From the IMG/VR virus record IMGVR_UViG_3300020451_002055: a stretch of DNA of 64,000 nucleotides. One strand, written 5' to 3'. Below the pieces are notes generated by a model that saw only the letters and a list, made by a program, of their open reading frames with translations, made no database searches and was not told the origin of the DNA. The translations under genes and the position numbers were made by a program. This document shows, in pieces, positions 3,457 through 26,448 of the stretch; the stretch's first letter is position 1; each line of letters opens with the position of its first letter. Origin of the DNA: a virus (lineage: Duplodnaviria > Heunggongvirae > Uroviricota > Caudoviricetes).

Positions 3457-3474
3457 CTCTTCTCTCCTCCAAAA

Positions 3475-3551
3475 TGCCCCGCGGCGGACTTGAACCGCCA
3501 ACCTCCGATCCCAAAAAATCGATGCTCTGATCCATATTGAGCTAGCGGGGC
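3475..3551 (-). tRNA. tRNA with 8-nt anticodon loop (UUUUUGGG), identity uncertain
   Basis: Acceptor GCCCCGC/GCGGGGC+A, D stem GCTC/GAGC, anticodon stem TCGAT/ATCGG, T arm GGCGG-TTCAAGT-CCGCC; no CCA. Confidence 0.8.
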
Positions 3552-3637
3552 AGGCAGCCGAATTGATACATGGCTCCGCGTTCGCGACCTACCAAAAGAA
3601 GCGTCGGAACCTCGATGGCTGCCCAAGTTCTTATCGA

Positions 3638-10999: not shown

Positions 11000-11034
11000 C
11001 CCCGTCAGTCATTATTGGCTGGCGGGGTGTTTTC
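11000..11034 (+). terminator. Intrinsic terminator
   Basis: CCCCGTCAGTCA-TTAT-TGGCTGGCGGGG followed by TGTTTT, between convergent genes. Confidence 0.6.
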
Positions 11035-11361
11035 TTGGGGCGTATACCCCAACTCGGCCATCCGATCGTCAAAGGCAGCGAACGCGCCATCCTCATTTGG
11101 AACGATGAACTTGAGCATCGGGAGAGAAGAGACTCCGGCCTCTTTGACTCTCTCATAGTCGTCTTCGGCCATCGAGATCAAAACCAATGCCGCAGATGGA
11201 CTCCCGATGTTGTCGTTGACCACCTCGAAAGAAATGACCTGCGTTTCGCACCACGACCGCAGTTCGTCCAATCCCGCAGCGACCGTATGACGGGTGTCGG
11301 CGTGCGTCCGTTGACTCATTGGAACCGATGGATTCTTGAATTTGATGAGGTATTCGGGCAT
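11005..11361 (-). CDS. Hypothetical protein
   Basis: 118-aa ORF. Confidence 0.55.
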   Translation of the reverse strand: MPEYLIKFKNPSVPMSQRTHADTRHTVAAGLDELRSWCETQVISFEVVNDNIGSPSAALVLISMAEDDYERVKEAGVSSLPMLKFIVPNEDGAFAAFDDRMAELGYTPQENTPPANND

Positions 11362-11393: not shown

Positions 11394-11618
11394 TTAGGCC
11401 GCTTGGAGGCGTTCCCGCATGACCGCTCGGACCTTCTCGGTGTCATGGCCCATTTTCAGGTACCGTTCCGCCTCTTGGACCATTTGGGCCAACTCTGCCG
11501 CATCCATGCCCTTCGAGCCGCCCCATTGCTCGATCATCTGCTGAATACCAGGCAAATCTCTCTTGGCAGATTCCCAGTGATAGTTGAGTTGAGCTACTAT
11601 TGTCTTATACCAGTTCAT
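11394..11618 (-). CDS. MNWY-leader protein 1
   Basis: Starts MNWYKTIVAQ, GGAG RBS. Confidence 0.7.
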   Translation of the reverse strand: MNWYKTIVAQLNYHWESAKRDLPGIQQMIEQWGGSKGMDAAELAQMVQEAERYLKMGHDTEKVRAVMRERLQAA

Positions 11619-11739
11619 TAGGTTCTCCGCGCGAATTTTTTGGAGGGCCTATTTTAGTACCCATGTTTTTGCTCCTGTACCCGGAGCCGCAGGCTCGGGC
11701 GCAGAAATTTTTTGGGCAGTACCCTTAGTACATTCTTTG

Positions 11740-12000
11740 TCAGATCGCAAAGTCAATCCTCCTCTGAGCCCTCGAAATATGCTCGATCGCCTTGCGGACC
11801 CTTTTGCGGGTATAAACGATATCAGGCTCCTGAAGAGCAGACGAGAGTTCTCTCGCAGCCCGGTTCAGATGGAGATTGATCTTGTTCTTATGAGGGTCGG
11901 CGTCGTCGATATCATCCGGACCGAACAGCCCCGTCGTCTGACGAGACGGACCGATAGGCCCCATGGCCGGAACGGATTGACATCTCTTATACCAGTTCAC
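11740..12000 (-). CDS. MNWY-leader protein 2
   Basis: GTG start giving MNWYKRCQS; GTGA overlap with upstream stop. Confidence 0.7.
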   Translation of the reverse strand: MNWYKRCQSVPAMGPIGPSRQTTGLFGPDDIDDADPHKNKINLHLNRAARELSSALQEPDIVYTRKRVRKAIEHISRAQRRIDFAI

Positions 12001-12584
12001 GATCTGCCCTCGATCTCTATCTGCGATTGGAACCACGCAACGATGATCTGAACGCCGTCGTTGAACGATACAACGATGCCGTCATAACCTAAGTTATCTC
12101 TTATGTAGTTGAAACCCTCTACCGTATCCGCATGGAAGAAATCATAGATAACGCTCATCATGGGCTTTCCGGCGTATTCCCTCACGACGGTCTCGATGAC
12201 GTTCTCTCGGCCCTCGTAGCCAACGTCGCCCCAGTTGTAGAGAAAGTCGTCTCCGAACTTGGACAGAGAATACTCAAGGGCCTGACGGACCTGGTTGGCG
12301 TCCATCGGAGGGAACTTCTCGAAGAAGGTTCCGGGTTGAACGCCGTCTATCTCGATGGGATTGGACAGATTGACCTTCGCCCTGATGACGCCCGGAGAAG
12401 AACCCTCGCCAACATACCGATTGGCGGTCCCCTCGTCGTTCGTGAAATAGAAGCCGGGTCCGTATTCGTCATTGCCGTTGCCTATGTATTCATAGGAGAA
12501 GCCCTTGTCGTAGATCGACTCGGCGTTGCCGGTTCCATGGAAAACGTCGTAGACGGGCATCGCTATCTTCCTATACCAGTTCAT
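11997..12584 (-). CDS. MNWY-leader protein 3, ADP-ribosyltransferase-like (H-Y clade)
   Basis: MNWYRKIA then VFHGT...YGPGFYFTNDEGTANRY and C-terminal GYDGIVV, as in ART domains of phage polyvalent proteins. Confidence 0.7.
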   Translation of the reverse strand: MNWYRKIAMPVYDVFHGTGNAESIYDKGFSYEYIGNGNDEYGPGFYFTNDEGTANRYVGEGSSPGVIRAKVNLSNPIEIDGVQPGTFFEKFPPMDANQVRQALEYSLSKFGDDFLYNWGDVGYEGRENVIETVVREYAGKPMMSVIYDFFHADTVEGFNYIRDNLGYDGIVVSFNDGVQIIVAWFQSQIEIEGRS

Positions 12585-14197
12585 CAGTAGAGCCCCTCGC
12601 TCGCTTGGACATCCTCCAAACGGACCCTCTCTAGAACGATGTCGTCCGGACCGAAGACCACGTTGGGAATTTTTTGCCAGACGTACCCAGTACCAGTCTC
12701 ATACACAGACGGAGGGATATCGACGCTGAACGCCTCCTGATCGTCATACGCCACGGCCCATACATGCTGATCCCCTATCTGAGCGTCGAACGTCGTGCAA
12801 CTAATATCCGCGGACGAGAGGATGTCGCAGAACGCAGATGCGATCTCCTGACAGATGCCGCCCGCCCCTAGCTCCATGTCCATGCCGTCCTCGTCCTGAT
12901 CCCACTGGTTGTATTCATTCTGAGCCGCTGACGCCAACTGCGGCAATAGCTGCTGCAGACGGGCATATAGGTCAACCTGCGGTTCGGACTGAGGCTGAAG
13001 AGCGGAGATGTCCGCTTCCGCCCATTCTTCGATAGGAGCAAAGCGGTAGGGACTCTTCTGCTCTATCCTGCTCGTCGCCATGAACGGGATGCTCGGATCG
13101 AACTCCAAATCCTTCGAGTTCATTACGATGGGAACAACGTAGAAACGACGCTTGTCGTTTCCCGAGAGCCAGTTGACCATCTTGCCGAAATCCGTAAAGA
13201 CGGTTCCTCCGGAGCCGACTCCGTTGTCATACAGAAGGGAAGGGTCTTGCTCGAAGTCCTCTGCTATGTGATGTTTCCAGACAAGAACCTGCTGATCAGG
13301 AACCTGAGCCCTTGCGAACAGACCTCTGAAGCCCCTGCCCATGATGGACCTTTGGTCGTCTATGCGGCTCTTCTCCGACAAGCCCCTGTCCTGAAGCATA
13401 TTCTTCATAACGGGATTCACAACATCTGCGTTCATCTCAAGATCGGGCATGTCGGCGCTCATGTCCTTGTAATGGGACATAGCCATGTCTGTCAAGCGGC
13501 CTCCGATGCCCTGACGCTGAAACGAAGGATCGACCACTACATCGAAGCTGTAGGAGTTTCCCTGAACAGAAGTAAACAGAGCGCCGACAACTCTGTCGCC
13601 GGAGACCGCAACCATGGACGGCTCCTTGTCGCTCAGAATGTTGATCGAGGAGTTCCTCGCCAGTTCATACGACTGCTCGTCGTAGTCGCCATCGGGATCT
13701 ACCCATTCGTATCTTATTCCCTGCTGAGAAACCCTTGTCAATCTTTCGCGGGACGAAGAGACTGTCTCTTGATAGTCATACTGCATGCCCGGAGTCCAGT
13801 CAAGAACAACCATAGCAGGAAGCGTCTGCGCTCCCATCATATGATGCAATGCGTCAAACCTATGCACGCCCTCCAAGATGTAAGGGCTAGGATCATCGTC
13901 AAATACGACGATTAGAGGCTCGATAGATTGGTTTTCTTGTATCTGACGAGCTAAGTCCTGCAAATAGGCGGTTTCTCTGCTATTCCTAGCCGAAATCGAC
14001 GTATTCGAGAACATAGAGTAGGGTATCTCTCTGATGCCGTCCAGTATCTCCCATTTGTAGGAGCTAGCGGATATGGAGTGCATTGAGTCCCCTATGGGTC
14101 TGAGAGGCATTCCCTGCCATTGCGTGATGACGGGTAGACTCTCTGCGGTCTGTCTCATCGGATGGTCTTGTTGGGCTATTCTTTGGAACCAGTTCAT
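12584..14197 (-). CDS. MNWF-leader multidomain protein: ParB-like + GNAT + unknown domains
   Basis: MNWFQRIAQQ; EPLIVV...YILEGVHRFDAL (ParB-like); VVVDPSFQRQGIGGRL (acetyl-CoA motif). Confidence 0.75.
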   Translation of the reverse strand: MNWFQRIAQQDHPMRQTAESLPVITQWQGMPLRPIGDSMHSISASSYKWEILDGIREIPYSMFSNTSISARNSRETAYLQDLARQIQENQSIEPLIVVFDDDPSPYILEGVHRFDALHHMMGAQTLPAMVVLDWTPGMQYDYQETVSSSRERLTRVSQQGIRYEWVDPDGDYDEQSYELARNSSINILSDKEPSMVAVSGDRVVGALFTSVQGNSYSFDVVVDPSFQRQGIGGRLTDMAMSHYKDMSADMPDLEMNADVVNPVMKNMLQDRGLSEKSRIDDQRSIMGRGFRGLFARAQVPDQQVLVWKHHIAEDFEQDPSLLYDNGVGSGGTVFTDFGKMVNWLSGNDKRRFYVVPIVMNSKDLEFDPSIPFMATSRIEQKSPYRFAPIEEWAEADISALQPQSEPQVDLYARLQQLLPQLASAAQNEYNQWDQDEDGMDMELGAGGICQEIASAFCDILSSADISCTTFDAQIGDQHVWAVAYDDQEAFSVDIPPSVYETGTGYVWQKIPNVVFGPDDIVLERVRLEDVQASEGLY

Positions 14198-14250
14198 AGG
14201 GGCCTCTGACGGTAGAGAGAAAGACAATCGTCATCCTTTGTCCGCGAAAT

Positions 14251-14580
14251 TTATTCGTATTGGCTTGGGTCTGCTTGGTAGACGGATGTTCCTTGGACGG
14301 GTTGTCCGCTGTAGAAGTATTCGCCCGGGTTGTATGCCTCGAAGACTGATGCAGCCGGGACCAATGCTCTGAGGACGTGGTATGGCTCGTCATCAACCGC
14401 CGCTCCATGCTCCGCGTGTTCCCTTGCGAACTTCATGCTCAGCGTTACATAGTCCATGTCGTTGAACTGAGTTACAGAAGCCGGAACCGCTCTGAGTATG
14501 GCTACGCTCCGATACTCGTATCCGGTCTCGGGAAGGGATCGTCCCTTCTGTCTGTCTTGGGCTAGCTTATACCAGTTCAT
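14251..14580 (-). CDS. MNWY-leader protein 5, degenerate ART-like domain
   Basis: MNWYKLAQ; ILRAVP...DYVTLSMKFAREH...NPGEYFY pattern. Confidence 0.6.
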   Translation of the reverse strand: MNWYKLAQDRQKGRSLPETGYEYRSVAILRAVPASVTQFNDMDYVTLSMKFAREHAEHGAAVDDEPYHVLRALVPAASVFEAYNPGEYFYSGQPVQGTSVYQADPSQYE

Positions 14581-14703
14581 ACAACCTCTCATGGTTGTTT
14601 TTTCGATATACAACCTCTGATGGTTGTAAACCTCAAAACGTTTATTCTCAGATGTAAACGCTATATCGTTTACTTTGCCAATATCAACAGTATAGCGTTG
14701 ACA

Positions 14704-15189
14704 TCAGATATCGCCGATTCTGCTTCCCTCTACTCTTGCGTATCCGTTGAAGCCGCCCACTTCATAGTCCCATTCATCGATTGTGTAGCCTTCCTTCTCG
14801 AACATGGCTAGAACCTCGTCGTGATGGTCTGCCCAATCTCCGAAGCTCATTTTGATGTTCTTTGGGCTATCCGGACGGTAGAAGACTTCGAGGCCCTGAT
14901 CGGGATAGGTCTTGTTGGCCTTCTCCGCCAGTAGGCGGAGGGAACTCGATTCATCCTTGCCCGCGAAAATCTTCAGCCTGCCGTTCTCAAGCCTAGAGAA
15001 GACGTGTTGGATGGCTCCGCCCGATGCGTCCCATGCGGCGGCTTCCTCTCTGCTGATCTCCTCGATGTCCGTTGCGTCATACAGAGCGGCGATATGCTCG
15101 GGTTTGATCGCCCTCATGATCATCGTGCCCGCTGGCAGCGTGACCCTGAAGTAGCGGACGGACTGAGATAGCTTGACATACCAGTTCAT
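14704..15189 (-). CDS. MNWY-leader protein 6
   Basis: MNWYVKLSQ, AAGGA RBS. Confidence 0.7.
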   Translation of the reverse strand: MNWYVKLSQSVRYFRVTLPAGTMIMRAIKPEHIAALYDATDIEEISREEAAAWDASGGAIQHVFSRLENGRLKIFAGKDESSSLRLLAEKANKTYPDQGLEVFYRPDSPKNIKMSFGDWADHHDEVLAMFEKEGYTIDEWDYEVGGFNGYARVEGSRIGDI

Positions 15190-15196
15190 AAAGTCC

Positions 15197-15829
15197 TTAG
15201 TAGCTCATGCCTTGAGGTTGACTGATGTTCGGAGAGACGACGGGAGCCATAGAATTCTGCTCCTGCTCGAACTCCCAATCGGCAGAAGGGTCTCCGGGGA
15301 ACCAAGGATCCTGCTCTTCATCGCCGTCGTTTCCGCTGTCATCGAGCAGGTTGTCGATCAGACTGACTATCCTGTTGACCTCCGAAGCGGCGGAATAAAC
15401 CGAATCAACCTTCTGAGCGTAGATGTTGTTTATATCGCCCTCGTCTCCGACCATGTTCTCCATGATCTCTCTCAGCTTTTCTATTTTGACTGACCACTCG
15501 GGTCTTTTGTCAAACATCGCATACGACCAATCCTTGTCGATGTCGATTTTCAGCGTGAACTCAACGCCCGGAGAATCGGCAGCCGTATCAAAGCTGCGAA
15601 CGTTGCGGTCCATGGCCGTATGAAGCTCAACCATGTAGTAAACAGGATACCCCTCCGAAGCATAGAAAGAGAACCAAGATATCTGCCCAACTCTGCCGCC
15701 GCTGGCTCTCTCGGGTAGGTGATCGACCCGCTTGACGCCCGGAACCATGTTGCGAAATGTGCCCTCAATAGCCTTCTTGAGACTATTGATAGGCAAAGCA
15801 GCGGCTTGTATCTTTCTATACCAGTTCAT
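15197..15829 (-). CDS. MNWY-leader protein 7
   Basis: MNWYRKIQAA, acidic tail. Confidence 0.7.
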   Translation of the reverse strand: MNWYRKIQAAALPINSLKKAIEGTFRNMVPGVKRVDHLPERASGGRVGQISWFSFYASEGYPVYYMVELHTAMDRNVRSFDTAADSPGVEFTLKIDIDKDWSYAMFDKRPEWSVKIEKLREIMENMVGDEGDINNIYAQKVDSVYSAASEVNRIVSLIDNLLDDSGNDGDEEQDPWFPGDPSADWEFEQEQNSMAPVVSPNISQPQGMSY

Positions 15830-15832
15830 GAG

Positions 15833-16138
15833 TTAGGCATACTTCTCGGGAGGGTCTTGAATCGGAACCTCGTCGCCGACGACGCCGTGTACCTTCTGGT
15901 ACAGCTCGTTCGCAGCCTGATCCGCTGCGGCCTGCTCCGCCTCCGGGTTCTCCGGCTGGGCCGGAACCCTGACCTCGTAGACCATGACGCCCCTGTAGCG
16001 GGCCATGCGCTGCGGTTCGCCTGTTTCCGGGTTTGGCTCCATCCCCTGAGCAGGATTGCCAAGCTGCGCTTCCTTCTTCTGCTTGGAATACGACCAAGCC
16101 GGAATCTGATTGTTGTAGTTCATGTGATCTCCATACAC
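15833..16138 (-). CDS. Hypothetical protein
   Basis: Pro/Glu-rich ORF directly upstream of MNWY cluster. Confidence 0.55.
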   Translation of the reverse strand: MYGDHMNYNNQIPAWSYSKQKKEAQLGNPAQGMEPNPETGEPQRMARYRGVMVYEVRVPAQPENPEAEQAAADQAANELYQKVHGVVGDEVPIQDPPEKYA

Positions 16139-18623: not shown

Positions 18624-21185
18624 TCAAAGCCGAAAGCCGTCTGCAGGATTTGAGAAACCTTCGGAACTCATAATCCCGAGCCTAACAAGCTCTTGAACCA
18701 TATAGCCATAGAAATCAGGATCATACAATCCATCCCACATCAAAAGCGAGTTGGGATCTCTGACAAACCTGGCAGATGCGCTGTGTTGCAGTTCTGCTGA
18801 CTGAACGTCCTGCAACGAAATGAACCGGTACTTACCAGACTTAGAAGGAGATTCCTCTTCTTCGCCGCCCCAGTCGATCAACGTGTGAAACTCAACAGAA
18901 ACGCATGCTGCCTCAAACCTGCGGGACAGTTCGCCAGCCGTCATGTCCCCCAGTTCATCATTGATGATTTTCCTAAACAATTCGGCATCCACCATGACCG
19001 GAATGTAGCTGCTCTCGATAACTCTAGTCAGGTGATCGGTCTTTCGCATATCCCAGGTTGTATCGGCCTCTCTAATAGCTTCGATCAAGGACAAGTTTGC
19101 TTTGCTCTCTGCGAACCTATTAAATGCGGCTTGGCAGTTATCCACTGTGATACCGTTTTGAAGTTCGCTCAGAAGATGGTCTCTCGATTCGATGAAGTCC
19201 GGATTGTCCGTAAACGGAAACTGCTTGTCAGGAGTAAGGAGAAAGCAGTAGACGCCCCGAGAAAGCCTGTTGTATTCGCCATGTCGGTTGACCCGGCCAG
19301 CGACCTGCAGGCAAGCTGTTACAGACCTTGCTTCCGAGAACGCATGTCTAAAGGACAAATCGATACCAGTCTCAAGGACCGAGGTAGCAAAGACGATGAT
19401 GTCGTCCTTGCTTTTCAATCGTTCTTTGATACTGTTAATGATTCTTGATTTGTCATACTTGCTAAGCGCGCTGCTAATGTGGTAGATATCTTCTTTAGGG
19501 GCAATCTCCATTTCTCTTGCGTAATGGGCGAGCAGTGCAGCATTCCTTGTCGTTTGCAAGATACAGAGTCGAGGGCCTCTGAATTGCGAGATTCTGCGCA
19601 GCAGCGAGGCTCCCGTGAAAATATGGGTTCTATCTTCTCTAACAAGGCCCCTAACAGGAGCCCTTCTGCGCTCCATATCCATCATCTGACTTGAAAGCTC
19701 TTCGCTAACAACCTCATGGATGTCAAGAGGTTCGATATTGAGATGCTCAGATTGCCACGGACGAATAGGAGTGCCTGAGCAAAAGATAAAGACGCATCCC
19801 CATTTTTCATTCAGAGTTTTAAGCGTCGATGCAATGATCGGCCAGAGGTGCGGAGGGAAACTGTTGTCGAACTCATCCAGAACAACAACGGAACCTGGAA
19901 GCTGATGCAACTTACGGAGCCTGTGCGTCTCTCCGCTCAGAATCGTCTCGAAGAACTGCACGGCTGTAACGCATGTGACGGGCGACCGCCAAAGCTTGCC
20001 GAAGGCAGCGGCAATCCAGTTATCGTACCCGGCAACGTGATGATGTTCTGCAACTGATCGCTCGCCAGGATCATAATCCCAACGAACTCTGTCGCTACTC
20101 TGCTGATCAGTTCCAAGACGAAAAGCTGCCCTCAGAGCTTCGGTTGTCTGACTTGTTGTATTAATGAAAGGAGAAACATTGTACACATGGCGCAGCCCTT
20201 GAGCCTCTGCGATGCGAAGGGCAAGAGCAGTCGAGGAGAAAGTCTTGCCGGAACCGACTGTTGCAGAGAGCATGTAGAATGATTGATTTGGGTCGCACTC
20301 CAAGCATTCCTGAAAAAGCCTGTCTCTGATGATATTTCTACGAGTCCTGCGAGCCTTTCCTCTCATCTCTCTATCTCGAACTCGGCGCACGTGCCCGATA
20401 AGCCTTTCAAGCCTGATCGTCGGTTGAAGTTCAACCTGATCAAAATCATCAAGAGGATACTTAGAAAATCTGCTCGATGCATCCAGATGATCAGAATCAA
20501 CCAGCATCGAGAAGAGGATGCGCATATCGATTGCATTAATGTCATCAATGCTAAGATTGGCCCTCGTCATCTTTCTGGGAAGCTCTTTGCAATGAACCTG
20601 AAACATATCGTTGATATATCTCTGAACATAGGCAGGCGTCTGCCCGTGATTGCCAAATCCAGGCTCTTGCAACAGAAAATCAAACGATCGCACGGCGTTG
20701 CCGCTAACTGTCTTCATCCGCCTAGAGCCCCTCTTGCGGGGTTTATGCGGCTCGATTGGATTCCGAGTCTTCCAGGCCGCTCCATCATTTAGCAGACCAA
20801 CATGGTGCCCCTCAACAAGAGCGCCAGAGATGACATGCGTCATCTTGTTTGTTCGAGCAAATGCTTCGAGGAGCAAGGCAACGCCCGCATGAACATGGTT
20901 GCCTCTCTCGCTCATGGGGCCGAGACCCTTCATGGCAAGCTGAAATGGAACCATGAGCTTTCCCATGTCGTGAAGCCAGGCGGCATCCATCAGCGACCCA
21001 TGCAGAGCATCGACAGCGCAAGGCCCTCTGTAAAAACTCAGAGCGTTAGTAGCCGCCCGCGCGGCCTTATCCATAACGCCAGCGACATGATTGCGATAAA
21101 GCTGCGGCGGAACAGGGTTCCCTCGCCGATCCTCGCCTTCGCTGCTTGCAACCAGCGGTCCTTCTGGTAGTTGATATGTTGCCAT
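18624..21185 (-). CDS. cas3: CRISPR-associated HD nuclease-helicase Cas3
   Basis: YRNHV, WLHDMGK, MLVDSDHLD (HD); ATVGSGKT, VVLDEF, FATSVLETGIDL, QVAGRVNRHG (SF2 helicase). Confidence 0.95.
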   Translation of the reverse strand: MATYQLPEGPLVASSEGEDRRGNPVPPQLYRNHVAGVMDKAARAATNALSFYRGPCAVDALHGSLMDAAWLHDMGKLMVPFQLAMKGLGPMSERGNHVHAGVALLLEAFARTNKMTHVISGALVEGHHVGLLNDGAAWKTRNPIEPHKPRKRGSRRMKTVSGNAVRSFDFLLQEPGFGNHGQTPAYVQRYINDMFQVHCKELPRKMTRANLSIDDINAIDMRILFSMLVDSDHLDASSRFSKYPLDDFDQVELQPTIRLERLIGHVRRVRDREMRGKARRTRRNIIRDRLFQECLECDPNQSFYMLSATVGSGKTFSSTALALRIAEAQGLRHVYNVSPFINTTSQTTEALRAAFRLGTDQQSSDRVRWDYDPGERSVAEHHHVAGYDNWIAAAFGKLWRSPVTCVTAVQFFETILSGETHRLRKLHQLPGSVVVLDEFDNSFPPHLWPIIASTLKTLNEKWGCVFIFCSGTPIRPWQSEHLNIEPLDIHEVVSEELSSQMMDMERRRAPVRGLVREDRTHIFTGASLLRRISQFRGPRLCILQTTRNAALLAHYAREMEIAPKEDIYHISSALSKYDKSRIINSIKERLKSKDDIIVFATSVLETGIDLSFRHAFSEARSVTACLQVAGRVNRHGEYNRLSRGVYCFLLTPDKQFPFTDNPDFIESRDHLLSELQNGITVDNCQAAFNRFAESKANLSLIEAIREADTTWDMRKTDHLTRVIESSYIPVMVDAELFRKIINDELGDMTAGELSRRFEAACVSVEFHTLIDWGGEEEESPSKSGKYRFISLQDVQSAELQHSASARFVRDPNSLLMWDGLYDPDFYGYMVQELVRLGIMSSEGFSNPADGFRL

Positions 21186-21222
21186 AAGAACCGAGCGGAC
21201 CGCAAGGCCCGCCCGATCGGTA

Positions 21223-22173
21223 TTAGTTGATCAGATCGACGAACTCGACGCCCTCGAACTGCTCCGAAAGGCTTTCTGCTGTCGGGAAGTCGTAGTCATC
21301 GTAACCCGTAGGCATGATCGCCTTGTCCTTAAGACGAGGCTTCATCCCCCTGAGAATATGGAACTGGTTTGAAGGAAAGTATGTGCGACCATCAGGCCGG
21401 GCCGAAAAAGCAGATACGACATGGACGCCGACTCGCTGAGCGGAACGGTCATCGAACATGTGAGGGATCAATCGTTCAAGGAAGTCAATGTCTTCTTCCG
21501 TTGCGCCGTTCTGACCCGCCTGAAAACCGTTCACGATGATGTGGCCAAAGAGGATCGCATGCTCGATGACCCGGATACCGTCCGGCGCGATATCGCTGAT
21601 ATCGGTTTTGTCCGCATGGGCTTCTCGAATCGGATGCTTCTTGCCGTTCGAAGAGATGTACGGAGTCACCGGGGCGACCGATGTGGGGAACGCGACCTGA
21701 ACGCATCCCTCGAACTTGCTGCGGAACTTCTTCTCGCCGTCTTCGCTCTTGATGTCGCTGATTGCCATTGCCCCGAAGAGGCGGGCGTCAAAGTAGCGAC
21801 TCAGGAAAGAGGCGGGATCATCCGACGCAAGCCCGAGAGCCTTCTTAGCAGCCTCATAAGGCTTGATATCCGCAAATCCCCTTGTTTCCGATTCGTAGAC
21901 CTGCCGGTTTTGCGGCTCGATGCCCTCGGCGATGTCGGCGATCAGAGGATCAGCATCTCCCCGATGAACCAGGTCTCGAATCTTTCGCTTCACAGCGAAG
22001 GGACTCATGATATTGTGCCCGGTCGAAGTGACCCGAGGTCCGCCGGTATCGACTTCTCCGTTGGGATTTGCCATCTCGACGGAAACTGCGTAAGCGATGA
22101 TACGGTCCCGAATACGCTTGCCGCCCATGTTCGTCGTTTTGCCCTCTGCAGGCTTCGTCTTAGTCGCAGGCAT
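21223..22173 (-). CDS. cas7: Type I-C Cas7 (Csd2)
   Basis: NPNGEVDTGGPR, AVKRKIRD, YFDARLFGA, GCVQVAF. Confidence 0.9.
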   Translation of the reverse strand: MPATKTKPAEGKTTNMGGKRIRDRIIAYAVSVEMANPNGEVDTGGPRVTSTGHNIMSPFAVKRKIRDLVHRGDADPLIADIAEGIEPQNRQVYESETRGFADIKPYEAAKKALGLASDDPASFLSRYFDARLFGAMAISDIKSEDGEKKFRSKFEGCVQVAFPTSVAPVTPYISSNGKKHPIREAHADKTDISDIAPDGIRVIEHAILFGHIIVNGFQAGQNGATEEDIDFLERLIPHMFDDRSAQRVGVHVVSAFSARPDGRTYFPSNQFHILRGMKPRLKDKAIMPTGYDDYDFPTAESLSEQFEGVEFVDLIN

Positions 22174-22212
22174 GCTTGCCTCCTTTGCGATGTCCTTATC
22201 TACGGATACGGT

Positions 22213-22644
22213 TTACTCTGCCGTTTCCGGTTTGTTCATCTTGCGATATCCGATCTGGAAGCCCATAGCTGCCTGAGCCCTCTCGGTAACTGTCATCATC
22301 CGTTCATACGGAAGCTCCGATCCCATGGCTTTTGCGACCTTGCGGAAAGTGTTCCACTTGGCTTGAAGATCGCTTGCTTCTTTCGACTTGCTCTTCGGGT
22401 AAGCTTTCTCGCCTCTGTTTCGGATGCTCTCGGCTTTCTGCTCATACGGGTTCACCAGGCGAGAAATTTGTTCCAGCAACATTTCCCATGTACGCCCGGT
22501 CGCCAGCAGAGACATGACCTTATACCCGACCAGAGATTCGGGAACAGTGTTGCCGTTAAACCTATGGTACGCGATCTGTAGTTCGCTGGCAGCGGCGCAG
22601 TAGACCCCGAAAAGGTAAGCAGGACTGGATGAGACATCCGACAT
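22213..22644 (-). CDS. cas11: Cas11-like small subunit from internal start in cas8c
   Basis: In-frame ATG (MSDVSSSPAYLFG) 5 nt downstream of AAAGGAG. Confidence 0.65.
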   Translation of the reverse strand: MSDVSSSPAYLFGVYCAAASELQIAYHRFNGNTVPESLVGYKVMSLLATGRTWEMLLEQISRLVNPYEQKAESIRNRGEKAYPKSKSKEASDLQAKWNTFRKVAKAMGSELPYERMMTVTERAQAAMGFQIGYRKMNKPETAE

Positions 22645-24258
22645 GGTAACTCCTTTCGCCTGCATGGCGAGACTGATGATGGACGGCATGCGGAAAAAGT
22701 CCCGCCTTGCGCCTGAATACATGGGGTCCGCATCGGGAAGCATCCTCCGGTGAGCCATATCGATCATCAACCAGATATGATGCCTTGCGATAATCGACAG
22801 AATGCGATCCGCAGTCGATGGGTTGCCCGTCAGAGCAAAGTCCAGCATGTCCGCGTAACGAATAACGGGAGGCCAATGCTCTTTGCTCTTACCCGTTTTT
22901 GGATCTTTACCTCTGATGGAGTTAAGGTATCCTCTATCGAGCTTTCCAGACATTACGCCCGCGCTCTTTGTCCATCTCGCATTCAGCACTCGCCAAACAT
23001 GGTCAAAACCCATGGGAATGCAAAACGAACTAGCAAACCTGTTAGTGATATTCGGCCCAGCTAGTTCTCTAGGGCCTCCCTCTGAAGCAGAGCGCCAGAG
23101 TTCCATTTTCTCCGAGATCGCCGAAAGCGACAACGATTGACTGACCAGAGGTAGAGCCATACCGCTCTGACCCGCAATAGAGAAGAGTTCGATCTGAACC
23201 GAAGAATCGGGATGATCAACAGCCGCCCCCTTGATCGTAGCGATAGACCTTTGATACAGGTCGATTGTTGCTGCTGCGATTTCTTCTTGAGTGATTTTGG
23301 CATCTTCGGCAGCAACGGCATCCTCCTCGTCCAAGACAGAAGAAAAATCGACCTGGAATCCTCCGATCTTGCTGTCTCCGCTGAGCAATGCGATGATGTT
23401 GCTCTCGATGTCCTGAATCAGTTGTCCGTTCTGATCGAACGGACAGGACAGAAACAACATCTTTCCTTCGCCCGCGATAATTGCGGCATGAGCAGCCTTG
23501 CCGTAAAGACGCTCCGGGTTCGCGAGAGCAGCCGTCGCAACAGCCAATCTCTGAGCCGTCTTCTGCGTCATGGGAAGCGGGTTCGTTCCTGATCTCCCGT
23601 AAACCTGATCGCTGGGGCTGGCAGCATTCCTTGAGTATGGGGAAACTCCGCCGATGACCGGAAACACCACCTTTTTCATGAGCGTGCCCGAGACCGGTCC
23701 TTCTTCTCCTGCAAAATCTCTGATCGAAGGAGCAGCCTTGCCGCCAGCCGTCGAGGATGATGCGTCCGCCATAGCTCCGTTCAATACAGAGAGATAGCTG
23801 TCTGACTGGACGTTGACGCCCTTGATCGAAAACAGAATGATGGCAGACTCAATAAGACCTGACTTTAGGCCTCGCTCTCGGAGTTCTTCTCGAATAACCT
23901 CCTGGCTGTCATCGGCTCCGCAGAACTTACAGACAGCATCCATGAGAGTACCCGTTTTGCCCTTAGTAAGAGCCGTCATGGGACGCAAGCTCGCTCCGCC
24001 CTTAATCAGACCTGCGATATTGCTCGGCAGTTTCGTCATCTGAGAGATTCGGCCATGCGGACCTCTAACCTTGGCGTTGGGCTGCAGGACTCTGAACGAG
24101 CCTCCGGTCCTGATCGAAAGCGAATCCATGACGGATCCGTCAGAGGAGAGCTTGACCTCAATGATCGGACGGTTCTCTTTTGCATGGATCGTATCGAGCA
24201 GCGGGTAATCGTCTTGCTGAGGCATGCCCAGAGCGATACGGTTAATGGTGTCAAGCAC
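22213..24258 (-). CDS. cas8c: Type I-C large subunit Cas8c (Csd1), divergent
   Basis: 681 aa between cas5 and cas7; C-terminal SPAYLFG motif. Confidence 0.75.
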   Translation of the reverse strand: MLDTINRIALGMPQQDDYPLLDTIHAKENRPIIEVKLSSDGSVMDSLSIRTGGSFRVLQPNAKVRGPHGRISQMTKLPSNIAGLIKGGASLRPMTALTKGKTGTLMDAVCKFCGADDSQEVIREELRERGLKSGLIESAIILFSIKGVNVQSDSYLSVLNGAMADASSSTAGGKAAPSIRDFAGEEGPVSGTLMKKVVFPVIGGVSPYSRNAASPSDQVYGRSGTNPLPMTQKTAQRLAVATAALANPERLYGKAAHAAIIAGEGKMLFLSCPFDQNGQLIQDIESNIIALLSGDSKIGGFQVDFSSVLDEEDAVAAEDAKITQEEIAAATIDLYQRSIATIKGAAVDHPDSSVQIELFSIAGQSGMALPLVSQSLSLSAISEKMELWRSASEGGPRELAGPNITNRFASSFCIPMGFDHVWRVLNARWTKSAGVMSGKLDRGYLNSIRGKDPKTGKSKEHWPPVIRYADMLDFALTGNPSTADRILSIIARHHIWLMIDMAHRRMLPDADPMYSGARRDFFRMPSIISLAMQAKGVTMSDVSSSPAYLFGVYCAAASELQIAYHRFNGNTVPESLVGYKVMSLLATGRTWEMLLEQISRLVNPYEQKAESIRNRGEKAYPKSKSKEASDLQAKWNTFRKVAKAMGSELPYERMMTVTERAQAAMGFQIGYRKMNKPETAE

Positions 24259-25196: not shown

Positions 25197-26248
25197 CTTG
25201 AAGGCCACCTCTCTTTGAGAGTAGATTGCAACTGGAAGACAGAAGACTCCTTCAGCTTGAGTGTTGAAGGCCACCTCTCTTTGAGAGTAGATTGCAACAC
25301 CAATGGCAACGGATTCCATGTCACGCTGGTTGAAGGCCACCTCTCTTTGAGAGTAGATTGCAACTCAAGGTTGACGGAGTAGACAGACGCCATGGTTGAA
25401 GGCCACCTCTCTTTGAGAGTAGATTGCAACTGATAGAGGATCTGCCGCTACAGCCCGCCAGTTGTCCGGGGTCACCTCTCTTTGAGAGTAGATTGCAACA
25501 CGACTCCGACGAATGGCGAGAGGTCGAGAGTTAAAGGCCACCTCTCTTTGAGAGTAGATTGCAACGGCTCAGTTCACGTCAGCGCGATCATTCTATTTGC
25601 ATCTCGCATGTAAATGCGAGTAGATTGCAACAGGATGCTGACACCAGGGTCGAACACCTCGGTTGTATCTCGCATGTAAATGCGAGCAGATTGCAACGAA
25701 CTTGCCGGGCTGAGCCTTGGCGACCTGATTGAAGGCCACCTCTCTTTGAGAGTAGATTGCAACGGATAGAGCCAGTCGATAACCGCATCAACTGCTGAAG
25801 GCCACCTTTCTTTGAGAGTAGATTGCAACAGCGAGCAGTTCGCCTTCTGTACCGACATCGTTGAAGGTCACCTCTCTTTGAGAGCAGATTGTAACTGAGC
25901 ATCGGAGTCAACTGTGTATTAGATCATTACATCTCGCATATGCGAGTAGATTGCAATCATGTCATGCTAACCGGACCAGCAGGCATTCATAAAAGTCGTC
26001 TCCCTTGGAGTAGATTGTAACCCTTTGACCATAAAACGGCTTGCTTCCTAAAGTCGTCCCAATCGGGTAGATTACAATTTCCGGACGCTGCCTCCGCAGC
26101 GCTTCCTGTAAGGCATCTCCGTCAGGAGTAGATTACAATGTGAGACCGTCTTTCGTTATGGGAGCCTCGATCGCCTACGGCGTAAATTACAACTACGGAG
26201 GATCAACGAAAAAGAATGCTCGTCTCCCGCTTGGGAGTAGATTGCAAT
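25197..26248 (+). CRISPR. CRISPR array, 17 repeat units, mostly 30-nt spacers
   Basis: Consensus GTTGAAGGCCACCTCTCTTTGAGAGTAGATTGCAAC (36 nt), 66-nt period; 11-nt handle TAGATTGCAAC resembles type I-C TGGATTGAAAC; leader at low-coordinate end, divergent units distal. Confidence 0.97.
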
Positions 26249-26448
26249 AAGCAGGCCAAAGCTGTAGCCGGGTACAGGTACATGTTCTCTCAACAGAGGG
26301 ACTGGTGGTAATGCCGGTCTCTCTATTCAAAACGAACAGAACAACGATTCGATTTCCCGCGAAATTACCCGCCGGGCAAAAGCCGATTTAGGAGTCCCTA
26401 TTTCTGGTATGGGAGTCCCATGACAATATAAATGGGGAGGGGCCGGGC

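Follow-up and report, generated by a model that had tools for sequence, protein, structure and literature searches.

We report that seven consecutive genes of a marine phage, encoding otherwise unrelated proteins, open with a common MNWY-type leader, which is very probably a real portable peptide tag. The genes lie at positions 11394-15829 of the 64,000-nucleotide stretch analysed here (the window; IMG/VR record IMGVR_UViG_3300020451_002055), which derives from a phage genome of ~0.5 Mb. All seven are on the minus strand and are numbered g1 to g7 along the direction of transcription. The leader is modular and disordered, is under selection as a peptide, and heads cargo of the type found among injected effectors. 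The explanation that we favour, although tentatively, is that the sequence MNW[YF] followed by [KR][KR]-[AIL]-[QKS] would act as an address peptide, loading effectors into heads of the phage G type, with cleavage and injection. The capsid destination, the cleavage and the injection are what we infer from sequence comparisons.

The MNWY-type starts are found at 15829, 15189, 14580, 14197, 12584, 12000 (GTG) and 11618, exactly where an earlier note on this DNA had placed them and on the minus strand throughout. That note had also claimed that the start DNA is fixed. Indeed, all seven genes open with (A/G)TGAACTGGT, against 0.18 occurrences expected in the window, and RTGAACTGGT is present seven times in the 64 kb, exclusively at the seven starts. 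None of 100 shuffles reached this number. Most tagged starts either have a Shine-Dalgarno-like GAGG or GGAG sequence 5-10 nt 5' or overlap the preceding stop; two stop/start overlaps are present, TGATG (g4 stop and g5 start) and GTGA (g5 stop and g6 start). In addition, orthologues support two of the starts: the MNWF start of g4 is kept in the orthologue P0017 although the upstream sequence diverges, and the GTG start of g6 is ATG in L123, a 130-kb metagenome contig. The composition of the leaders was as described, with Gln at position 8-10 in six of the seven tags, and codon counting gave TAT for all six Tyr codons (the seventh tag, that of g4, has Phe encoded by TTC) and AAC for all seven Asn codons. 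No second leader, of the FNLK type, turned up in a scan of the window; this check is weak, since its pattern also missed the known MNWY starts.

The downstream bodies are unrelated, as had been stated: following removal of the first 10 residues of g1 to g7, no BLASTP pair falls below E = 0.4, the best E being 0.44. This result bears on the hypothesis of an ordinary paralogous family that has kept only its N-termini, to which the tandem, co-oriented arrangement of the genes, reminiscent of many paralogue arrays, would be suited. However, the bodies belong to different families and folds (ADP-ribosyltransferase [ART], ParB_N plus GNAT, ParB-C-like, orphans) without pairwise similarity, and in relatives the tag also heads glucose-6-phosphate dehydrogenase (G6PD), kinase, cREC receiver and ArdC-like proteins. 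A chance resemblance, the other form of this hypothesis, has to face the seven starts observed against the 0.18 expected. Paralogy and chance are both highly improbable.

To what level of the sequence selection applies can be read from orthologues. All nine ART orthologues of g5 carry the leader in the form MNWY, MHWF, MSWF or MSWY, one apparent exception being a mis-called start, and small indels separate tag and body among them. In the AlphaFold2 (AF2) model of g5, a pLDDT under 50 is confined to residues 1-8, and the first strand begins at residue 11. A census of 56 candidate tagged starts, including a few open reading frames (ORFs) that are probably spurious, showed an invariant W3 and, at position 4, Y or F with the exception of one W. 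At position 2, N is usual and S, H, A, G or R less frequent (T in one ART relative, MTWY); K/R prevail at positions 5-6, with A, I or L at position 7 and Q or K at position 8. Specifically, the replacement of Tyr by Phe in g4 (TAT to TTC) takes two base changes, and in the MSWY (AGT TGG TAC), MHWY and MAWY variants the bases change and the peptide pattern stays. Because W3 is invariant, position 4 is nearly always Y/F and Tyr was exchanged for Phe by two base changes, we conclude that the leader is selected at the peptide level. The idea of a modular tag on unrelated cargo, put forward in the earlier note, is thus borne out by the unrelated bodies, by the tagged ART orthologues, by a leader lying outside the fold and by its recurrence in related megaphages.

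Tag residues 5-10 are more similar within genomes than between them (0.297 vs 0.232; 10 of 5000 label permutations). Such a likeness is expected under co-evolution with a genome-specific reader, and local copying would give the same. A single ORF of the related genome G001 (G001:109632-110258; L133:9632-10258) holds MGWYASAKS and, 30 residues later, MSWYRQAKT, either alternative starts or a duplicated leader. In the papers searched, the string MNWYK turned up only as two unrelated chance matches.

The codons of the tag are conserved as well. Across five contigs, Asn is AAC in 31 of 33 tags and Tyr is TAT in 29 of 32, in genomes of 39-54% G+C whose bulk codon use is 31-66% AAC and 38-71% TAT; for three of the five contigs the search was seeded with an exact ATGAACTGGTATAA, so that one or more of the tags in each is biased, and the window and L123 were found otherwise. 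In the window, TAT is used six times out of six (bulk 38%, p = 0.003), and the same tags have ATA for Ile in 4/4 cases (bulk 12%), CTA for Leu in 2/2 (5%), CAA for Gln in 7/8 (33%) and AGR for Arg in 5/5 (30%); in untagged genes, G+C at third codon positions falls no more than slightly towards the 5' end. The codon invariance is therefore statistically real. Recent copying is unlikely to be its cause, because the same AAC/TAT choice is made across genomes of different composition. The proposal that the tag spreads as a DNA module may account for the invariance, but the persistence of this choice over such a range of G+C points to selection on nucleotides rather than to recent copying. Selection on the RNA, acting on the structure of the start region or on a regulator site, possibly lies behind the codon choice, either as a rival or as an added layer.

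The strongest form of this thought takes the 12-nt AUGAACUGGUAU itself as the conserved unit, be it a cassette for translation initiation or regulator binding (T4 RegA, for instance, attaches to many start regions) or a microhomology for gene swapping, the peptide being a by-product and possibly an inheritance of the ART-PolyVal header discussed below. Synonymous sites fixed against genome bias would be explained in this way; the island is in addition a rearrangement hot spot, in which L123 homology resumes 8 nt before one tag, and the g5 leader grades into the header through internal forms. On the other hand, the MSWY, MHWY, MAWY and MTWY variants and the two-base change of Tyr to Phe preserve the peptide and not the bases, residues 5-8 are conserved with varied codons, conservation begins exactly at the ATG with differing sequences upstream, and a stretch of twelve bases is too short for homologous recombination. 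A unit at the nucleic-acid level is thus improbable.

A natural rearrangement supports the modularity of the peptide tag. L123 represents a close relative, with 87% identity in the ART protein and ~75% DNA identity in the flanking cas and glycosyltransferase genes, and the island between these genes is rearranged with respect to the window. A 514-aa tagged protein of L123 has at its N-terminus the counterpart of g2 residues 1-78, and the C-terminus of another tagged protein, ArdC-like and 613 aa long, matches residues 71-160. The ParB_N module, which in the window is found in a gene of its own (g4) with a leader, is internal in L123, behind another module and devoid of a leader, and a HicA-like domain takes the place of the GNAT middle of g4. 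Every separate gene of the L123 block begins M-x-W-Y, and in both the window and L123 each tagged polypeptide has one leader, always N-terminal. We count this pattern of splits and fusions in favour of tag modularity. In the g4 orthologue of L157, an ENA contig of low coverage, the frame at L157:1170-1200 continues past GNAT into the next module; this fusion keeps the leader internally, as …KQ-L-NWYNLIKTSQ, with codons TTA AAC TGG TAT.

The nature of the cargo points to delivery. In the window it includes ART-PolyVal, ParB_N and GNAT domains, and in relatives ArdC-N plus zincin, HicA, zeta/AAA_33 kinase, PcfJ and cREC receiver domains, with ArdcN/MPTase-PolyVal (a weak match) and HicA plus ParB_N among the L123 relatives. 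The repertoire is largely that of the polyvalent proteins of phages and conjugative elements, for which packaging in the capsid or escort with the DNA has been argued (Iyer, Burroughs, Anand, de Souza & Aravind 2017, PMC5512222). The two sets share the ART-PolyVal, ParB-like, ArdC-N, zincin MPTase, GNAT and RNase toxin repertoire, free domain shuffling and a predicted role as effectors delivered with DNA. Unlike polyvalent proteins, which combine 2-15 domains per polypeptide, the tagged proteins are mostly encoded by small separate genes with their own leaders: g4 has at least three domains, g2 two modules, and g1, g3 and g5-g7 are single modules. The MNWY leader is not described in the text of PMC5512222 as searched. 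The tagged set behaves, in short, as a polyvalent toolkit split into separate genes, and its best description is that of a split toolkit with a new leader. An ART alignment profile found 881 representatives; the distant ones are domains of proteins of 2000-5000 aa, and their alignment starts no earlier than profile position 13-14, leaving the leader out.

In other phages, homologues of the ParB_N and GNAT modules of g4 are fused to MuF/SPP1 gp7 (PF04233; P0022 and P0023), and one MuF-fused record bears the name 'phage minor head protein'. PF04233 had no match in any of g1-g7. MuF, whose place in the head is established, is an N-terminal module bringing variable effector domains there, as the MNWY leader is proposed to do; it is, however, a folded, portal-binding domain of ~100-250 residues, whereas the candidate address studied here has 8-10 disordered residues. 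The presence of the same cargo on MuF elsewhere and on an MNWY peptide here is our strongest indirect argument for head loading.

The cargo may also indicate where the leader came from. A conserved header, FKxWFGxSKVVDxxGxP, stands ahead of the ART-PolyVal domain in polyvalent proteins. The segment FKxWFGxSKVVD was considered as a generic inter-domain junction motif and rejected: at least 61 of 69 headers precede the ART H-G-T signature, and the header thus belongs to the ART-PolyVal domain. Comparison of P0048, P0032, P0029 and P0015 with window positions 12555-12584 revealed a graded series, from internal NWFKKSKIAD in a 2100-aa protein, through internal LNWYKRMKIAD and DWYSRVKKAD, to N-terminal MSWYKKAD and finally MNWYRKIA of g5. 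In this handful of sequences, the g5 leader is probably homologous to the header, and copying from it may have given the other, unrelated proteins their tag.

The head type with which the tag is associated was read from the relatives G001 and G003. G001 (IMGVR_UViG_3300020429_000539) is a complete genome of 488 kb with terminal repeats, and since 25 ORFs of window 124-63576 are colinear with G001 174783-242984, in inverted order and with 25-86% amino acid identity, it can be used as a complete stand-in for the genome of the window's phage. A tagged island occupies the corresponding position of G001 (225-229 kb) with mostly different cargo; against GenBank phages, the island of the window gave no blastn match. 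By synteny with G001, the head module of the window's phage would be ~30-55 kb past the low-coordinate end of the window. Both G001 and G003 have a portal and a major capsid protein (MCP) of the phage G type (54% and 73% identity to phage G and G001, respectively), together with a protein of 1842-1890 aa whose N-terminus is a head maturation protease and whose remainder is presumably the scaffold. G003 has nine tagged genes adjoining its head module, with ~1 kb between their end and the MCP gene. By comparison, the 424-kb genome G002, with a T4-type protease and without a phage-G-type MCP, contains the start motif at control level only. From these genomes, the MNWY tag appears to be linked to one head type, that of phage G.

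The protease-scaffold proteins suggest how the leader might be cut. The motif [KR]xA[QS], chosen after both sets had been seen and open to inflation of its K-x-A counts by helical periodicity, has 11 occurrences in the protease-scaffold of G001, where 2.2 would be expected (0 of 20000 shuffles); this is the highest enrichment among 529 ORFs, and other head-module ORFs of G001 are also within the top 12. In the G003 protein it occurs 9 times against 2.7 expected (8 of 5000 shuffles). K-x-A-S stands on each side of the protease domain in both G001 and G003, and the G001 protease begins MGFTKRAS, in the same register as MNWYKKAQ. The earlier note had suggested a cleavage after A/S-Q; with scaffolds of the relatives repeating K-x-A-S, a cut after Ala (K-x-A/x, the stroke marking the cut) would fit better, although [KR]-x-[AS] fits only four of the seven window tags. 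A predicted complex between a 69-aa tagged protein of G001 and the G001 protease domain scored 0.01 and carries no weight either way.

Taken as an address peptide, the leader would work in three steps. The aromatic MNWY would dock the new protein to the core of the assembling prohead, namely the giant protease-scaffold or an inner shell; the basic-x-Ala sequence would be a cleavage site of the head maturation protease or adjoin one; and the enzymes, among them the ADP-ribosyltransferase and the ParB-type nuclease/NTPase with acetyltransferase, would be enclosed with the DNA. Once enclosed, they would enter the next host with the DNA and blunt its defences. A more far-reaching version, which we regard as rather unlikely, holds that a two-part code of MNWY docking and basic-x-Ala cutting pre-loads the very large heads of phage-G-type megaphages with dozens of free enzymes as a takeover proteome (ADP-ribosyltransferase, ParB nuclease, acetyltransferase, ArdC, HicA RNase, kinases and even G6PD), the code perhaps having arisen from the ART-PolyVal header upon the splitting of polyvalent proteins into separate genes.

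Among known systems, the closest parallel is the capsid targeting sequence (CTS) borne by the T4 internal proteins IPI/II/III and Alt (Rao & Black 2010, PMC3012670). In both cases an N-terminal leader of ~10 residues is the sole conserved part of otherwise diverse anti-host proteins, and the cargo includes an ADP-ribosyltransferase (Alt in T4, g5 here). The T4 sequence, MKTYQEFIAE, has Tyr at position 4 and an aliphatic-Ala pair before the presumed cut, features also seen in MNWYKTIVAQ. The two leaders nevertheless lack sequence homology, and the MNWY tag has no Glu-ending (L/I)-x-E site: Glu is absent from all seven window leaders, so that none offers the (L/I)-x-Glu site of the gp21 type. 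PF03420 (Peptidase_S77, gp21-type) is likewise absent from G001, whose protease is of the phage G gp19 type, and, unlike T4 gp21, the phage-G-type protease of the relatives is fused to a giant scaffold. Furthermore, the MNWY set is far larger and more varied, with seven members in the window and dozens of families in relatives. By analogy, the MNWY system would work most like the T4 CTS, yet without being a member of that family. A second, tentative likeness is to the herpesvirus assemblin and the phiKZ/SPN3US prohead protease, in which the protease is fused to or travels with the scaffold and is bordered by short cut motifs that are repeated and have a small residue at their end. The assemblin site consensus is (V/L/I)-x-Ala/Ser, cut at the stroke, and the K-x-A-S sequences flanking the protease domain in G001 and G003 are putative sites only.

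Several observations weigh against loading into the head. The related genome G004 encodes at L121:4180-5499 a complete G6PD (G6PD_N plus G6PD_C, E 1e-46 to 1e-63) with the leader MNWYKWAQ, and a full-length metabolic enzyme is an odd one to inject. Phage G, the sole cultured relative, has no MNWY gene starts: its three MNW[FY]-like sites represent a control-level count, the two examined being inside annotated genes and the third a TTG site, and consequently the published virion proteomics of phage G cannot test the tag. As regards cleavage, the scaffolds have K-x-A-S whereas most tags have K-x-A-Q/K/T, and a motif derived from the tags of G003 itself is not enriched in the G003 scaffold (7 vs 5.4); the late choice of [KR]xA[QS], the possible inflation of its counts and its partial fit to the window tags, all given above, belong here as well.

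The same G6PD would be better accommodated if the address were meant for another reader, that is, if the leader were an N-terminal degron by which a ClpXP-type protease of host or phage clears early effectors, or a handle for a chaperone, an adaptor or a subcellular site. Cytoplasmic metabolic cargo fits this hypothesis better than it fits capsid loading; a disordered, N-terminal and portable leader is equally in keeping with it, and phage G encodes ClpP/ClpX. N-W-Y-K also loosely resembles the ClpX N-motif-1 (polar-hydrophobic-hydrophobic-basic-hydrophobic), of which TNTAKI and STAKL are examples (PMC9775585). For the first four places of that motif, N-W-Y-K fits three of the seven window tags, or five if Arg is counted as basic, but a hydrophobic residue immediately follows the basic one in only one of the seven (MNWYKL). 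A degron, moreover, leaves unexplained why the cargo is of the injected-polyvalent type, why these domains occur as MuF fusions in other phages and why the tag tracks one head type. We consider a different reader unlikely, though less so than a unit at the nucleic-acid level, and retain head loading as our preferred, tentative explanation.

The individual genes are described here in the order of transcription, all coordinates referring to the minus strand. g1 (15197..15829) encodes 210 aa with the leader MNWYRKIQAA, an orphan body and an acidic tail; it has tagged homologues in G001 (MSWYRRIQAA, 36% identity) and L124, and no Pfam, PHROG or ESM Atlas match. g2 (14704..15189; 161 aa, leader MNWYVKLSQS) consists of two modules and gave no usable match in an ESM Atlas search. 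g3 (14251..14580; 109 aa, leader MNWYKLAQ) has a body matching phrog_2579 ('ParB C-terminal domain', 3.6e-13). Just 5' of g3, at 14581-14640, there are two copies of the hairpin ACAACCATNAGAGGTTGT, the second of which holds the g3 Shine-Dalgarno sequence; the pair may serve in translational control or as a terminator.

g4 (12584..14197; 537 aa, leader MNWFQRIAQQ) is a multidomain protein of the polyvalent type, comprising a ParB_N-like domain (55-130), a GNAT acetyltransferase (~168-258), a middle part and a C-terminal domain (405-537) with invariant Cys, His and Asp. For the latter, Foldseek returned only weak similarity (E > 0.1) to the folds of arylamine N-acetyltransferase, transglutaminase and thiol protease, which hints at a thiol-enzyme-like fold. 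A tblastn search of g4 against GenBank phages gave no match. The public gene call for g4 (P0016, window 12584-14158) begins at an internal Met (MRQTAE…) and misses the leader, and the ART orthologue P0013 is likewise mis-called at an internal start; automatic annotation thus under-counts the MNWY tag.

g5 (11997..12584; 195 aa, leader MNWYRKIA) encodes the ART-PolyVal ADP-ribosyltransferase, matching PF18760 with 36.3 bits against a cut-off of 31.2. Its AF2 model has a pLDDT of 82, and the best PDB folds are the catalytic domains of tankyrase, PARP and diphtheria toxin (probability ~1.0, E 2e-3 to 3e-2), the top match of the fold search being a cyanophage A4 pre-ejectosome chain, all with modest E-values. 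H16, Y46 and E124 are invariant across nine orthologues and are the putative catalytic residues. In GenBank phages, only ~25% identical hypothetical proteins of Rak2/CBB-type jumbo phages were found, and for one of these g5-like proteins, CBB_455, no mention was found in the literature.

g6 (11740..12000; 86 aa, GTG start, leader (M)NWYKRCQS) is small and conserved, its tagged orthologues in L123 and G001 showing 75% and ~47-61% identity, respectively, and g7 (11394..11618; 74 aa, leader MNWYKTIVAQ) is a small helical orphan, for which no counterpart was found at the same L123 position by BLASTP. In Pfam and PHROG searches, g1, g2, g6 and g7 remain orphans. The island is bordered by untagged genes on the same strand. 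Upstream, a 101-aa gene (15833..16138), whose stop lies 3 nt before the g1 start, is kept in L123 directly ahead of the tagged block; downstream, a 118-aa gene (11005..11361; 55% identity in L123) marks the island end.

Directly upstream of the island, a phage-borne CRISPR-Cas module is present at 18624-24258 (minus strand) and ~25490-26250. Its components are a Cas3-like helicase of 853 aa, a Cas7 of 316 aa, a protein of 681 aa and an array of repeats with TTGCAATCTACTC; the module is kept in L123 (75% DNA identity), with no match in the syntenic G001. Elsewhere, the promoter-like sequence AAGATGRGTG occurs in 39 copies against 8.5 expected, within 26936-63027 and mostly on the minus strand; almost all copies are at 27-61 kb (~33 of them on the minus strand), ahead of small minus-strand genes, and none is in the tagged island or the cas genes. 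A sigma-70 and terminator scan gave nothing informative, and k-mer searches in G001 returned only tRNA arms and terminal repeats. Finally, ARAGORN places at 3474-3552 on the minus strand a tRNA-like gene whose anticodon has four bases (tttg) and to which no amino acid is assigned; it stands apart from the cluster of nine ordinary tRNAs at 61.1-63.7 kb.

In conclusion, whatever its reader, the tag reveals a functional link within a class of accessory genes, of which many are orphans. If head loading is correct, a string of eight residues would predict from sequence the injected proteome of uncultivated megaphages, and would explain how effectors of the polyvalent type are delivered as separate small proteins. 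The leader would also provide a small handle for packaging foreign proteins in very large capsids, as the T4 CTS does.

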